64,000 nt of DNA from Eledone cirrhosa (lineage: Eukaryota), in contig OZ024753.1 of the NCBI GenBank assembly GCA_964016885.1, forward strand, positions 11,098,001-11,162,000. The letters are read 5' to 3'. The notes under the pieces were generated by a model. The model was given only the letters and a program-made list of their open reading frames with translations, was not told the DNA's origin and searched no databases. Positions 8,583 through 56,993 of the stretch are shown here, piece by piece (the stretch's first letter is position 1; each line of letters starts with the position of its first letter). Made by a program: the position numbers and the translations under genes.

Positions 8583-8963
8583 TGCAAAAGTTCTAGTTAA
8601 AATTGTTGGGATACAACAAGTAAATATTTTATAACTGATATAAAGCACTCGACAAGTGTTGGAGTAGATATACGATATTAAATAAATGGAAACTATATTT
8701 ATAAAACCATATTTATTTCATTATACATATTTCAGGGATACCAAATTAAAATATGGTATGCTGTCTGGATAGACTATCCAGACAGCTTCCAAAAATAATG
8801 GTCGCATCTAATAGGGTACGTCAAAATTATTTATAAAACTGTTTATATATTGTATTTTGTCTGATGAAGGCATACCATATTTTAATTTGGTATCCCTGAA
8901 ATATGTATAATGAAATAAATATGGTTTTATAAATATAGTTTCCATTTATTTAATATCGTATAT
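8583..8963 (+). mobile_element. Family J fold-back element in (TA)n with a hammerhead-like core
   Basis: Inverted arms about 8668-8761 / 8870-8963, CTGATGA at 8861, stem II 8868-8897, GAAA at 8898, tail 8583-8667. Homologues at 46262-46616, 50540-51036 and a collapsed copy at 27641-27730. Confidence 0.8.
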
Positions 8964-9051
8964 ATATATATATATTATAGATTTACTATATATACACTAC
9001 ATACACCTTATATACACTATATTTAGACTATATATACACTAAACTACATAT

Positions 9052-9250
9052 GATGTTGTCCAAGGGAAAGCGAAAGGCCGAACAGTTTGGCACCAGTGAT
9101 GTTGCAACTCATTTCTACAGCTGAGTAAAGTGGAGCAACGTGAAATAAAGTGTCTTACTCGAGGACACAACATCACCTTGTCCGAGAATCAAACTCACAA
9201 CCTTTCAATTGCAAGCCCAATGCGCTAACCACTAAGCCATGCGCTTTCAC
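9052..9250 (-). mobile_element. tRNA-derived SINE, family 2
   Basis: The reverse complement has an A box (TGGCTTAGTGG), a B-box-like GAGTTTGATTC and body aagacactttatttcacgttgctcc. Matches 36087-36225 and 46890-47197. Confidence 0.75.
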
Positions 9251-9293
9251 ACACACTTATAATACAAGACCTTGTAGCTAAACAAGAAAACAA

Positions 9294-9475
9294 GGGAGGT
9301 AAATTGGTAGAAATGTTGAGAGTGAAACAAAGTGGTTTGTGTTATTTATCTCGGCTTTTTGCGTTCTGAGTTCAAATCTGCTAGGATTGATTTTACTTTT
9401 CATCATTTCAGGGTCGATTAAATATATTACCAGTCAAGTACTGGGTCAGTCGATTTAATCCAATTTCCCACCCCT
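9294..9475 (+). mobile_element. tRNA-derived SINE, family 1, diverged copy
   Basis: B box gagttcaaatc and core tttcatcatttcagggtcgat. Confidence 0.65.
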
Positions 9476-10338
9476 TTGTGTTTACAAGTAATATGACATT
9501 TCGATGGTAATTTTGCTTCTGCTAATGTTGTTGTTGATAATAATTGTTATATTTACTCCATTACGTTTTCTAGCCGACAGGGTGAGGCCATACCGAGGCA
9601 GCGACATTAAAAGAATGCTTACAGCATCTTAGTATTTAGATGAGTGACCGCTTGATAAACTAACAAGGCTCTACGTTGCTTAACTTCAGTGACCGGGCGA
9701 GAAACGCTGTTTTTAGCGTGATATTGCCGTATTTTGTTGATAACGAGAATATTTATCGAAGCCTTATACGAACTGTGAGATAAAAGATCGAAAATAGAAA
9801 CGAATTAAAGCGAACATTAAACAACCCCGAAAAAACCCCATAGACACTCCAAACATTATTAAACCTTATAAGTATTATAACCCCATCCCTCCATCTAGAC
9901 ATCTATCTTAGCAAACAAGAACGTCTTTCCAAAGAATTTCAAGGGTTTTGGCTCAAGTGTTTACAAGGATTAGAAAGAAACGTATAAATTGCAAAATGGT
10001 TCTTTGATCTGAAAGAAGCCGCGAGCATCTGTGACGGTGCCATCAAATTCCAATCGTCCTGCAAATGGCCTGTCGCCAAGAAGATTTTCTTGGAAAAGAT
10101 AAGGAGTGAAAGACAAGTAAATCTTTACTGGAAGATAGAAACCATTTTAACTTTGTACTGACAACTAAAAATGGTAAAACTCTTTTGATTTATTGCTGTA
10201 TATAGTGGAAAAGGAATTGTAATAGTAGTAGCAGAAGTAGTATCTGCAGTAGTAGTAGTAGCAGAAGTAGTATCTGCAGTAGTAGTAGTAATAGTAGTAG
10301 TTGCAATAATAATAGTAGTGGTAGTAGTAGTAGTAATA

Positions 10339-52995: not shown

Positions 52996-55568
52996 TATAT
53001 ATATATATAAAGGTATACATGTATAAAGGTATATATATATATATAAAGCTATGTAAGGATATCGTGGCATGCTAGAAATGAGTGTGGTTGCCAGATGGAA
53101 TGAATAAATGTAGCAGTAATCGAGTAAGGCTACGTTGTTATTTCTTGGTAAAACCGACATTTTGAGCTATTTATGCAAATCTAGTTTTTCTGATCACAGT
53201 ACTTATGATAATATCAACAAATAATAATCTAAAACAACGATATTATTATAGATCATATCACTGTGTGAATACATATTGATTTATATGAAAATAAGTTTTA
53301 TTTCGTTCACACACACAGACACACACACGAACATACACACACACACACACACACACACGAGCACATACATAGAAAGCGATATTCACATGCTTTTAAATAC
53401 AAAAATATTCATACATATATATAAGTGTAGACACACGCAAACGTACACATACATATTTATGTATGTACATATATACACATGCATATACTTATTTAGATAT
53501 ATGTATCATACATATAAACACACACACACACACACACACACACACACACACACACACACACACACACACACACACACACACACACACAATATATATATAT
53601 ATATATATATATATATATATACATACCTACATATATAAACATACATATTTATACATTCACTCACACAAAGACATCAAATAACATCTATATATATATATAT
53701 ATATATATATACGATATATATATTTATATATATATAAATATATATATATCGTAAATATATATATATAAATATATATATATTTATATATATAAATATATAT
53801 ATATTTATATATATATATATATATTTACGATATATATATATTATATATATATAAATATATATATATCGTAAATTTATATATATATATAAATATATATATA
53901 TTTATATATATATATATATATATATACGATATATATATTTATATAGATATATATATATACGATATATATATTTATATAGATATATATATATATATACGAT
54001 ATATATATTTATATAGATATATATATATATACACGATATATATATTTATATAGATATATATATATACGATATATATATTTATATAGATATATATATATAT
54101 ACGATATATATATTTATATAGATATATATATATATATACGATATATATATTTATATATATACATTCATTCACACAATGACATCAAATAACACATATCTAT
54201 ACACACACACACGTGTGTATATGTATATATATATATATATATATATATATATATATATACACGATATATACACACACACACACACATATATATATATATA
54301 TATGATATATATAATATATATATGCATTGATATGCACATACATATAGATACATATTTACAAATATATGTATAGATATATATATATATATATAAAGTCTCA
54401 CAGTGTGTGCGTGAGTATTTGTGCAATTATCTAAGTTTATTGCTTCCCCATAAAACCCAATCTTACCCTAACATAAATAATGCAGCCGACATGTTAATCC
54501 TGTACAAACCTGCTGGCTCCATTCTATCTACCAATATTACACTTTGGCATTTAGCCACCATATTAAGCCAACGCAATTTCTGATCGACACCTTTATTTCT
54601 ATAAATTGGCTAAATTGACCACAGCTCTGACGTATAGGGCAGCATGTGTGAATGTACGTGTGTGTGTGTGTGTGTGTGTGTGTGTGTGTGTGTGTGTGTG
54701 TAGGTGTGTGTGTGTAGGTGTGTGTGTGTGTGTGTGTAGATGTGTGTGTGTGTGTGTGTGTAGATGTGTGTGTGTGTGTGTGTAGGTGTGTGTGTGTAGG
54801 TGTGTGTGTGTAGGTGTGTGTGTGTGTGTGTGTGTGTGTGTGTGTGTGTGTGTGTGTGTGTGTGTGTGTGTGTGTGTGTGTGTGGAGATGTGTGTGTGTG
54901 TTTCTATGCTTGTCTGCATGTATGTATATATATATATATATATATATATATATATATGTGTATGTATGTATATATGCATGCATGTTTTCATCTAGGTATC
55001 CATCTATGTATGTATGTATCTATGTATGCATGTGTGTATGCATCTATGTATGCATCTATGTATGCATCTATGTATGTATGTATGTATGTATGTATGTATG
55101 TATGCATGCATGCATGTATGTATGTACGTATGTATATATGCATGCATGTTTGCATTTACGTATCCATCTATGCATCTATGTATGCATGTGTGTGTGTGTA
55201 TGCATGTGTGTGTGTGTATGTATGCATCTACGTACTTATGTATGTATGGGTGTTTGTGAGGTTCTAAAGCGCTGTTTCCTGTAAACAGAGAAACTTACCA
55301 TGTAATGCTGGAAGAACATGCTATATTTTAAAACCTCTTTTCATCTCAAATACGAAACAGCAATGATCTATTATTATACCGCCAGCTAATGTTTCTAAAT
55401 ATTCCCTTCCTATTTCTGGTGGTGCCATCATATATCTCTACAGAACTTATATCAGTATTGCTGGTTATCACAACATATATTTTACACTTTCTGAACAATG
55501 AACACCAAACACTCTCTGTACACAATCACCAGTAAAATAGACAATGTACAACAATACAAACTCTACAG

Positions 55569-55847
55569 CAGGCTTCTCAAACTGAGGGTCCCCTGAGGAC
55601 CACATGGGTCACATATGTATTGTCTGAGAGCCACACATGACAACTAATTGTGCATATTACAACTAATATTTTTTATTTTATATTACACTCGCGCTGTAAA
55701 AAGGTTTGTGCGGGCCGCGGGTGTGCTTGTGCGGGCCGCGGGTGTGCTTGTGCGGGCCGCGGGTGTGCTTGTGCGGGCCGCAGGTGTGCTTGTGCGGGCC
55801 GCGGGTGTGCTTGTAAAGGCCAGCGGGCCGCATGTTTGACATGCCTG
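55569..55847 (+). mobile_element. hAT/Charlie-like MITE with an internal 21-bp tandem repeat
   Basis: TIRs CAGGCTTCTCAAAC / GTTTGACATGCCTG, 8-bp flanks ctctacag / ctgtagag, and ttgtgcgggccgcgggtgtgc repeated five times. Confidence 0.7.
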
Positions 55848-56584
55848 CTGTAGAGAATCACCAACTAACAATAGAATAAAAAACACATAATATATACTTT
55901 ACATTATGACCATCCAATAATATAACAGAATCCACAAAACACGCATTTACATAAACCTCCTTCTTCGCCCAGTTATTCCTGAGAGAGTCATGGGAGCAGA
56001 GTCTTCAAACATTTCCCACCAGCGGGTCCTGTCAGAAGGACCCATCTCCAACTGATCTGGCTCGATCCTCTGGGTTCCCTGCCGGTTGGTTTTGCCCATA
56101 AAATCTGTCAAGCGATTCATTCCTGAAACATTCTAACCACATGGCTTTAGTATCGGAGCAGCTGTGATCTCCTAATTCAGAGATGTAGCAGGTCTACTTA
56201 GAGTGACTCTGATCTCCGAGGTACGCACACTTTTGAGTAATATAATACAACCGCCAATAAAATGAAATATATATTCTTCGAGGACCACAGACTCTTTAAC
56301 ACTAAATATCCTTACATTGCAGAAGGAGCAGACAGATAAAATGAATGAATAATTCTCAGAAAGAATTAAAATAGAATCCAAGCGAGTAAACGAACACAGT
56401 TGAATTGAAAGCCAGCTATGGGTTTGGACAATTCCTCAAACAAGTAACTCAGACTGCGACTAAAACAGAGGTCATACTTGGCTTCTAACTTGTCAGCTGA
56501 AGCAGGAATCTGAATGATCGATAAACAACTTGTGTACCTGTCATTTAAACAACATGCGTACCCGTCTCTACCACACCACTTCGG

Positions 56585-56639
56585 ACTGCCTGAAGAGGTC
56601 ACAGCCAATGATGGCTGTCACCGAAATATATAAAGCAGT
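56585..56639 (+). ncRNA. Hammerhead-like motif with one core substitution
   Basis: ACTGC-CTGAAGA-GGTCACAGCCA atga TGGCTGTCACC-GAAA-TATATA-AA-GCAGT. The downstream tail has gtcgagtgct at 56735. Confidence 0.6.
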
Positions 56640-56993
56640 ATATCTATAATTTATAATAAACGAAGCCAAATTTCACCTATTTGACTTAATTAGTTTACAT
56701 TACGCCGGAGTAAACAAACCAACCTGCGTACTTCGTCGAGTGCTCCAGTCTGCATACTGAGGTGTCGGTAAATAACCAACATATACTCAAAATTTATATA
56801 TATATATATATATATGTAAGTATGTATGTATACGTACATACATATATGTATACAGACGTACAGTAGTACGTATATATATACATACATGCACACATATATA
56901 TATGTACGTATGGGTTTACCGAACATTTATTATATCGATATGCAAAAGGAAAGTATATACTTTCAGACGTTCAATCATCTGGCAGGAAGGTAT

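Follow-up and report, generated by a model that had tools for sequence, protein, structure and literature searches.

A bulged hairpin conserved in Hydra-type Penelope-like elements lies just past the ends of their copies

A bulged hairpin in the tails of (TA)n insertions

A recurrent feature of the 64-kb stretch of Eledone cirrhosa DNA analysed here (the window) is a short bulged hairpin in the tails of elements inserted into (TA)n. A strict descriptor, in which RCTC and an inner stem of at least 3 pairs are followed by a 2-nt bulge and GAGYRC, has 14 matches in the window, as against a mean of 0.17 and a maximum of 2 in 100 block-wise dinucleotide shuffles and none in the reversed or the complemented window. 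The 2-nt bulge is required, with bulges of 0, 1, 3, 4 or 5 nt giving 1 match each. The shared hairpin proposed in the first-pass annotation of this DNA, RCTC-stem-loop-stem-TN-GAGYRC, is thereby confirmed as a real, conserved feature. Nine of the 11 sites listed there fit the descriptor and two, at 56701 (ACGC) and 51391 (AATC/GAAT), fail it; five sites are additional (7981-8006, 12900-12929, 39113-39138, 48985-49005 and 50601-50622). The sites are as follows, with hairpin 1 denoting the copy in the tail, "strict" a match to the strict descriptor, and the hammerheads predicted by descriptor match.

29741-29767, plus: hairpin 1, family K, strict (ACTC-CAGT/ACTG-TA-GAGTGC); family linked to an 821-codon Hydra-type frame
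37413-37439, plus: hairpin 1, family K, strict
37308-37362, plus: predicted type I hammerhead (core to predicted cut site), upstream of K hairpin 1
29460-29514, minus: predicted hammerhead, inverted short arm of K
8645-8665, minus: hairpin 1, family J, strict, long arm of the inverted pair at ~8587-8966
8861-8909, plus: predicted hammerhead, short arm of the same J pair
46531-46553, plus: hairpin 1, family J, strict
46426-46470, plus: predicted hammerhead upstream of that J hairpin 1
50601-50622, minus: hairpin 1, family J, strict, in the pair at ~50545-51043, which has a SINE-like insertion
50936-50985, plus: predicted hammerhead, short arm of the same J pair
2168-2193, plus: hairpin 1, family A, strict, in a shortened tail with 27 nt to TA
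27497-27522, minus: hairpin 1, family A, strict, long arm of the inverted pair at ~27445-27623
46691-46716, minus: hairpin 1, family A, strict, long arm of the inverted pair at ~46639-46861
39113-39138, minus: hairpin 1, family A, strict, with a (TA)5 run (39145-39154) at the short-end site
27896-27916, plus: hairpin 1, family I, strict, long arm of the inverted pair at ~27761-27961
27830-27868, plus: predicted hammerhead upstream of I hairpin 1, with a mirror copy at 27776-27814, minus
48985-49005, minus: hairpin 1, family I, strict, in the pair at ~48942-49108
49549-49572, plus: hairpin 1, family O, strict (GCTC/GAGCAC form), in the pair at ~49452-49625
56702-56743, plus: hairpin 1, family M, decayed (ACGC), not strict; family linked to a Hydra-type ORF
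51392-51419, minus: hairpin 1, N-like family, probably a decayed copy (AATC/GAAT), not strict
7981-8006, minus: hairpin 1, further family P, strict
12900-12929, plus: hairpin 1, further family P, strict

Since 13 of 15 family M copies read TACTC, the 56701 site is a decayed copy. The 51391 site is probably decayed as well, since its look-alikes among the genome-wide and flanking-DNA matches carry ACTC/GAGT. Tail words in common, seen by eye and not by BLAST, tie it to the N-like L308. The family J copy at 46531 reads CAG/TTG, not CAA/TTG as first given. A distance of 40-60 nt from hairpin to terminal (TA)n is roughly true (41-63 nt) at 10 of the 14 window sites but is not invariant, being 27, 78, 79 and 92 nt at the other four. 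Outside the window, 200 kb of flanking DNA has 16 matches (1-4 in slid-bulge controls, 0 in the reversed control), 15 of them with (TA)n within 150 nt downstream; genome-wide, the pattern as originally written has 175,547 matches versus 23,862 for a backwards control. The motif had not been recognised as a described one, and our literature search likewise found no description of it. None of the best 150 of 361 Rfam 15 matches is a family for the hairpin; among these 150, a 5S rRNA-like stretch at 9616-9734 was alone in scoring at or above the gathering threshold of its family.

Carrier elements and conservation of the fold

No Hydra-type ORF lies inside the window. The 821-codon open frame of family K encodes FDITMG, YRDD and an endonuclease-type region at the C-terminus; family A frames have 784-786 codons. 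Scanning the K protein against Pfam gave no family, and its assignment as a reverse transcriptase (RT) with a GIY-YIG endonuclease at its C-terminus is based on motifs and a profile of 45 relatives. The DKG motif is changed to DKT, with SDKT in K and A, DKT in 39 of the 45 aligned relatives and DKG in none. At the N-terminal RWK position K has RWT and A has RWR, as does, by eye, the published Hydra-1_Crog; RWK occurs in 27 of the 45 relatives and RW[KRT] in 34. CxCX5C, CNLC and CxH are present in both proteins, and in K the interval from the GIY-like to the YIG-like motif contains, by eye, no cysteine pair. K was at first labelled Nematis-like, a label dropped once the Hydra diagnosis was compared. 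The carrier families belong to one clade, the Hydra-type Penelope-like elements (PLEs): K, A, J, I, M and the N-like family, originally described as unrelated, are related 3' ends of such elements, with 38-73% protein identity. Family O is a 537-bp non-coding tandem unit found elsewhere in the genome. Searches of viral contigs found nothing, and a sequence search of solved structures was empty. No RNA data set was listed as containing the K junction, a result that carries no information on expression.

These elements resemble the Hydra clade of C-terminal EN+ PLEs, as described in the available text of Craig et al. 2021 (PMC8557442), in the single ORF with RT and C-terminal GIY-YIG-type domain, in DKT, CxCX5C, a late CxxC and CxH, and in (TA)n targets, a type I hammerhead, inverted 5'-truncated arms and a one-sided tail. 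They differ in size, with units of 3896 bp (K) and 3542 bp (A) versus "generally <3 kb", and in tails of ~70-165 nt versus 30-40. Tandem units, the inverted 5'-truncated arm and the one-sided tail, that is, the EN+ PLE insertion architecture, were all found here. The type I hammerhead is predicted by descriptor in K, J, I and M, with core variants in A (U3-A8) and S (C4); the strict hammerhead descriptor gave no match in the N, O, Q and K2 references, although a hammerhead-like core is visible by eye in O.

To assess covariation we used 69 hairpins selected blind to inner pairing. Among them, 66 have a Watson-Crick inner pair 1, a figure that falls to 1, 2, 7 and 20 of 69 when the partner is slid. 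Inner pair 2 is kept in 50/69 (shuffle mean 29.3) and inner pair 3 in 39/52 (20.7), with less clean slid controls for these two (up to 39/69). On a tree built solely from 42 proteins gathered in this analysis, there are about 6 independent joint T-A/C-G switches. Few 10-mers in the flanks are shared between families, and the spacer between the arms ranges from 7 to 30 nt. Motif matches are concentrated on the sense strand of non-coding DNA (44 in 92,100 bp), versus 3 antisense, 4 in ORFs (162,609 bp) and 1 reversed. Among 50 non-redundant regions, 8 have no hairpin and 15 only one. The suggestion of a conserved cis element in element tails thus holds: the hairpin covaries and is located in PLE tails.

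The fold extends well beyond this genome. The GCTC-stem-TY-GAGCAC form occurs at 35 of 77 marine-metagenome loci, which were recovered by scanning with a protein alignment; a scan with the single K protein gave no match. In the available text of PMC8557442, the motif is visible in the consensuses Hydra-2_Amil, Hydra-2_Ajap and Hydra-1_Ajap (twice in the last), the coral and sea-cucumber consensuses carrying the GCTC/GAGCAC form; Hydra-1_Crog has a mismatched variant, and Hydra-1_Amil and Hydra-1_Obim show no clear copy by eye. The words "hairpin" and "stem-loop" are absent from the text and supplement text of that paper. The A-T to G-C swap in family O, put forward as a compensatory change, has to be turned round, as G-C is the common form in other animals and A-T the variant of this genome's families. 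The hairpin is conserved across one PLE group in many marine animals, in most cases as two copies in an element.

Two hairpins and the copy ends

Read-through copies reveal a second hairpin ahead of the ORF, often with a weak inner stem. Tandem copies from families K, A, J, M, N-like, O, Q and S, and marine metagenome elements as well, show the same order along the element: hammerhead, short end, hairpin 1, long end, hairpin 2 and ATG. Hairpin 1 lies ~25-60 nt past the predicted hammerhead cut site and hairpin 2 ~15-60 nt before the ATG, with 38 to 130 nt between the hairpins. Hairpin 2 is located beyond the long end and is not inserted, which is why the window sequence does not reveal it.

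Both ends follow the hairpins closely. Of 204 ends that abut (TA)n, 196 sit 3-13 nt 5' of either hairpin (30.7 expected if any TA served), 26 of these depending on a family I hairpin 2, GCAC-5nt-GTGC, assigned after the data had been seen; family I has no canonical hairpin 2, and neither of 2 matches is the element's continuation. Reference family R (21 ends) was excluded from this count, since the ends being scored there were those of a SINE in its reference. At loci not fetched by tail queries the figure is 19 of 21 (2.8 expected). The metagenome test comprised 13 rows: six gave ends with a hairpin of the same contig 6-11 nt to their 3' side, 4 rows are simple-repeat artefacts, 1 is a variant hairpin outside the pattern and 2 are not element ends. 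Inverted insertions combine a long and a short end in 111 of 115 cases, with short plus short in none and one tailed end each, and the same combination is seen in 26 of 26 inverted pairs from loci not fetched by tail queries. The fixed landmark is the copy end just upstream of a hairpin and not the downstream terminal (TA)n. Three Neptune-type families of the same genome, which also target (TA)n, have short and long ends without the hairpin motif, a point against the reading proposed below.

A possible role in choosing RT start sites

How PLEs choose their start sites, and how the one-sided tail and inverted arms arise, is an open question in the field, and reconstitution in vitro covers one element only (PMC11167929, available text). 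For that Poseidon-clade element, RT was reported to initiate internally, at two RNA positions that form the borders of the tail; RNA lying 3' of these positions is required, both strands are cut and extended, and a dimer is predicted. Taking the sequence and copy ends together, we infer, with somewhat more confidence than doubt, that the hairpins direct the RT to two start sites on a single RNA, in line with the RT binding suggested in the first-pass annotation; the one-sided tail of Penelope elements would thereby be accounted for. Two RT-endonuclease molecules would bind to a transcript that reads through tandem copies, one at each hairpin; the endonuclease would nick the (TA)n target on both strands, and each target 3' end would anneal to the UA just 5' of a hairpin and prime cDNA synthesis. 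Joining of the two cDNAs at their truncation points would give the head-to-head pair. The tail would then be the stretch between the two start points, and for that reason hairpin 1 would be found in tails and hairpin 2 would never be inserted. Since non-coding units such as O retain both hairpins, they would be moved in trans. The full version, in which PLE RTs form a pair held by two short hairpins on the same RNA and write both ends of a cut (TA)n together, is a tentative proposal that we would not yet bet on.

The motif could instead act as DNA, with the GIY-YIG endonuclease binding a cDNA hairpin or inverted repeat and cutting at the TA just upstream, so trimming intermediates or cutting existing copies. 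Stability is similar under DNA folding parameters, and in the available text of PMC8557442 the tail is ascribed to endonuclease resolution of an intermediate; according to earlier work cited in PMC11167929, recognition by the Drosophila Penelope endonuclease depended on the tail. Six of 295 hairpins have a TA run no more than 12 nt upstream, the run at 39145-39154 among them; this would fit cutting of existing DNA copies, but few tails begin at a TA run. The variable spacer and covarying inner pairs are a poor fit to a double-stranded operator, and direct mapping in another PLE places both tail boundaries at RT start sites (PMC11167929), so that we consider action as DNA unlikely. The positions of hairpin 1 after the hammerhead and hairpin 2 before the ATG would also suit a function in translation, in stabilising the RNA or in the folding of the hammerhead, the hairpin lying in the next tandem copy's 5' leader and the ends being nearby for another reason. 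This is improbable, given that non-coding family O retains both hairpins and that the ends follow both despite their variable spacing.

A further scenario, a little less probable again, makes the hairpin a stop signal on an antisense template, with RT halting a few bases before the stem, much as a telomerase template boundary. Head-to-head junctions have been used to argue for an antisense template (PMC3846280, available text), and in telomerase and DRT10 the boundary of the template is fixed by stem-loops (PMC12632851, available text). An AlphaFold model of a relative (pLDDT 92) has TERT as its first-ranked match, with low TM-scores, and is silent on RNA binding. Folding probabilities do not pick a strand, at 0.61 for the sense and 0.58 for the antisense outer stem, and exceed 0.5 in only 43 of 69. 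Against an antisense template, the predicted hammerhead is on the sense strand, flanked non-canonical pairs on that strand are G-U rather than A-C by 6 to 1, priming in vitro used sense RNA (PMC11167929), and the fixed ends are next to the target repeat, where priming sites should be. Shared ancestry alone, without selection on pairing, could be entertained for homologous families, yet it is largely refuted and very improbable: inner pair 1 is kept despite the dissimilar flanks, the double switches are repeated and the 2-nt bulge is fixed.

The two-start reading has partial parallels in known systems. The Anolis Poseidon PLE PAc (Frangieh et al. 2024, PMC11167929, available text) likewise has two RT starts bounding the tail and AT-rich targets, but as a Poseidon element belongs to another clade than the Hydra-type carriers. 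The boundary stem-loops of telomerase and DRT10 are similarly template-adjacent and fix where a TERT-like RT works; however, they lie 5' of the template and stop synthesis, whereas the hairpin here is 3' of the putative start, in sense RNA (PMC12632851). Family O resembles the non-LTR retrozymes (Cervera and de la Pena 2020, PMC7229834; Li et al. 2026, 10.64898/2026.07.22.740005) in being non-coding, in its tandem units and in its hammerhead-like core, and it is probably moved by a PLE; it differs in having both hairpins, the available text of those accounts giving no cis mobilisation signal.

If the proposal is true, a portable hairpin of ~25 nt sets each start, and the tail and head-to-head arms are explained. 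A related CTC/GAG stem, 9-10 nt beyond the short end in Neptune-type families, would extend this to a rule for PLE clades in general and would supply a minimal signal by which any RNA could be loaded onto an RT related to telomerase. With a short covarying motif linked to both ends in distant animals, the start-site question can be tested by a few point mutants; the motif can also serve to match non-coding hammerhead repeats with their partner elements and to delimit elements. L2/CR1 LINEs and their SINEs have common 3'-end stem-loops near the RT start, which the partner RT recognises; these are part of the copied sequence, once per element, whereas the present hairpin lies outside it and is present twice. 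Telomerase has its closest eukaryotic relatives in the PLE RTs, so the way these recognise RNA is relevant to how telomerase arose. This genome also contains a young family in which many intact frames are identical, and a family queried with P0014 (830-832 codons), which matches none of the window's families, has variant hairpins ending in GAGCTA or GAGCTG.

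A bulged hairpin in the tails of related Penelope-like families

The hairpins reported by the first-pass annotation (RCTC-stem-loop-stem-TN-GAGYRC, with a 2-nt bulge) are present in the window where it placed them. Nine of its 11 sites pass a strict descriptor; the two that fail are a decayed copy at 56701 (TACTC is found in 13/15 copies of its family) and a copy at 51391 that has probably decayed likewise. The strict descriptor finds 14 hairpins in the window vs. an average of 0.17 over 100 shuffles, five copies lie beyond the annotated list, and other bulge lengths give one match each. 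Across the 3.0-Gb genome the annotated pattern matches 175,547 times, vs. 23,862 for a backwards control, and 15 of the 16 matches in 200 kb flanking the window have (TA)n downstream.

Comparison of the window with itself reveals palindromic insertions between (TA)n runs. Elsewhere, copies of repeat family K combine an inverted arm starting at a fixed short end with a direct arm ~98 nt longer, and longer copies continue into a frame encoding a reverse transcriptase (RT) and a C-terminal endonuclease; this frame shares the hairpin's strand. The family is young, given that its 147 scored matches are 98-100% identical; its tandem unit is 3896 bp and its 821-codon open frame is intact in many copies. 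Judged by its sequence motifs, family K fits the Hydra clade of Penelope-like elements described by Craig et al. 2021 (PMC8557442). Families A, M, J, I and an N-like family are joined to a K-type ORF by read-through copies, while family O is a non-coding unit occurring as 537-bp tandems. Protein identity among nine families of this genome is 38-73%, so the families are related, and their earlier description as unrelated is not supported. Two further young Hydra-type families (loci L202-L231) have 830-832 codons, Asn-rich linkers and hairpins at least 130 nt apart that end in GAGCTA/GAGCTG.

Two hairpins and the ends of inserted copies

Tandem copies read, in order, 3' UTR, type I hammerhead, short end, hairpin 1, long end, hairpin 2 and ATG, the two ends being the points where inserted copies stop against (TA)n. 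Hairpin 2 has the form GCTC-stem-TN-GAGCRC in families K, A, J, M, N, O and Q. In family I this pattern gave two matches, neither of them a continuation of the element; its read-through copies have GCAC-5nt-GTGC in that place, an outer-stem swap with the bulge absent. Long ends of family I (L348, L357, L368) are more scattered than those of other families.

Among 204 distinct (TA)n-abutting ends from 11 reference families, the TA run begins 3-13 nt 5' of hairpin 1 or 2 in 196, mostly at 6-7 nt, compared with 30.7 expected if any regional TA served; 26 of these ends depend on a post hoc assignment of hairpin 2 in family I, and family R (21 ends) was left out because of a SINE artefact. For loci not retrieved by tail queries, 19/21 ends fall in the zone vs. 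2.8 expected, and metagenome ends have offsets of 6-11 nt in six of 13 rows. Inverted pairs (n = 115) combine a long with a short end in 111 cases (long-long 1, long-other 3, short-short 0), as do 26/26 in loci not retrieved by tail queries and 8/8 in the window.

Several variants of this anatomy were observed. Hammerhead cores in young families include U3-A8 (TTGAGAA; family A, L302) and C4 (CCGAAGA; L231, L258), both overlooked by descriptors requiring CTGANGA, and in the K and J hammerheads (37308-37362, 8861-8909, 46426-46470) the stem II region is long (26-36 nt) and stem III is minimal and palindromic. The short end and hairpin 1 of family A form a 63-bp tandem array on another contig (C1, 81256625-81259215). 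In short tandem units of ~170-260 bp (L242, L243, L368), which are retrozyme-like derivatives of coding families, the stretch that follows hairpin 2 is joined back onto the hammerhead.

Conservation and covariation

A 45-protein alignment used as query retrieved 77 marine-metagenome loci, 35 of which contain at least one hairpin, many of the others stopping short of the site. Matches number 44 in sense non-coding sequence vs. 3 antisense, 4 in ORFs and 1 reversed, most commonly as GCTC...TY-GAGCAC. In PMC8557442 the hairpin is present in the published consensuses Hydra-2_Amil and Hydra-2_Ajap, twice in Hydra-1_Ajap, and as a mismatched variant in Hydra-1_Crog; by eye, it was not seen in Hydra-1_Amil or Hydra-1_Obim. 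The word TNGAGCAC occurs 15 times in the supplement, by a count that overlooks words broken across line ends; four are these hairpins and 11 are dispersed in Naiad and Chlamys sequences.

For covariation, 63 regions, 52 of them from the metagenome and 11 excised around known hairpins of our own references, were reduced to 50 non-redundant ones, with two hairpins in 27, one in 15 and none in 8, and 69 hairpins were selected on their outer arms alone. Inner pair 1 is Watson-Crick in 66/69 (C-G 43, T-A 22, A-T 1), vs. 1, 2, 7 and 20 of 69 with the partner slid. Pair 2 pairs in 50/69 and pair 3 in 39/52, both exceeding all 10,000 shuffles, which take no account of relatedness, and slid controls reach 39/69. 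The first bulge base is T in 67/69; the outer pair alternates between G-C, A-T and T-A, pairing there being a condition of selection. When pair 1 of hairpin 1 is traced on a 42-protein FastTree, its 5' base needs 6 steps, its 3' base 8 and the two taken together 8, implying about six simultaneous switches. The first-pass annotation had named one diverged sequence with pairing unselected as an outcome that would refute it: the families are indeed related, yet inner pair 1 is almost always Watson-Crick, and neutral ancestry is hardly credible as the origin of the motif.

Possible roles of the hairpin and a Neptune-type lead

The DNA inserted at a given end does not include that end's own hairpin, and we infer that the hairpin must be read either from the donor or from an intermediate. 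In a Poseidon-clade element, according to Frangieh et al. 2024 (PMC11167929), reverse transcription begins at two positions inside the RNA, one at each boundary of the tail; it requires RNA 3' of both, and both target strands are extended. The simplest joint reading, which we consider probable, is one RNA with two hairpins and two RT starts, each hairpin directing one start. Recognition of the motif by the endonuclease at the DNA level is unlikely, and a leader or ribozyme function for the hairpin somewhat less likely still. An antisense template is suggested by PMC3846280, and a stop signal on such a template appears improbable, slightly more so than a leader or ribozyme; folding favours neither strand, and non-canonical pairs (G-U vs. 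A-C, 6 to 1) favour the sense strand. The top-ranked match to the predicted structure of a relative is TERT, which is expected and is no evidence of binding.

Penelope-like elements, their hammerheads, their targeting of (TA)n and their one-sided tail are already known. The first reading did not recognise the hairpin as a described motif, and we found no description in the literature searched, subscription papers, Repbase notes and figures being mostly beyond its reach; a term search of PMC8557442 (with supplement), PMC4209133, PMC7229834, PMC2377424 and PMC3846280 returned none. A twin hairpin that covaries and is linked to both ends appears undescribed in print.

A GIY-YIG search gave 30 loci, the majority from three Neptune-type (TA)n-targeting families. 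The hairpin motif is absent at the ends examined, and all three families have ACTCGTG ~9-10 nt beyond the short end or its internal TA run (L403-L421, L424, L434, L437, L445); window positions 49151-49338 are a tail copy of one such family. In read-through copies, stretches complementary to ACTCGTG lie beyond the long end, those in families 2 and 3 having been predicted before inspection:

Neptune-type family 1: 8 pairs, 15/20 loci
Neptune-type family 2: 8 pairs with one G-U, 1/25 loci
Neptune-type family 3: 6 pairs, 3/15 loci

This pairing would be a different structure at an analogous place; the three families being related, it is no more than a lead. In one Neptune-type family (L438-L462) the short-end site is itself a variable-length (TA)n run within the element, and tails frequently begin directly after a long TA run.

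Other features of the window are:

4551-7383: 109-bp tandem repeat in 26 copies that are 97% alike
9616-9734, minus: 5S rRNA-like stretch, slightly over the Rfam gathering score
13657-13850: abundant ~185-bp SINE-like repeat, with more than ten similar copies
17004-24719: 51-bp tandem repeat of ~151 copies, whose minus strand has open frames rich in Thr and Pro
51090-51322 and 52789-53166 (minus): two copies of a LINE C-terminal fragment, which we take to be RTE-like
50631-50817: one copy of the ~185-bp SINE-like repeat, immediately upstream of hairpin 1
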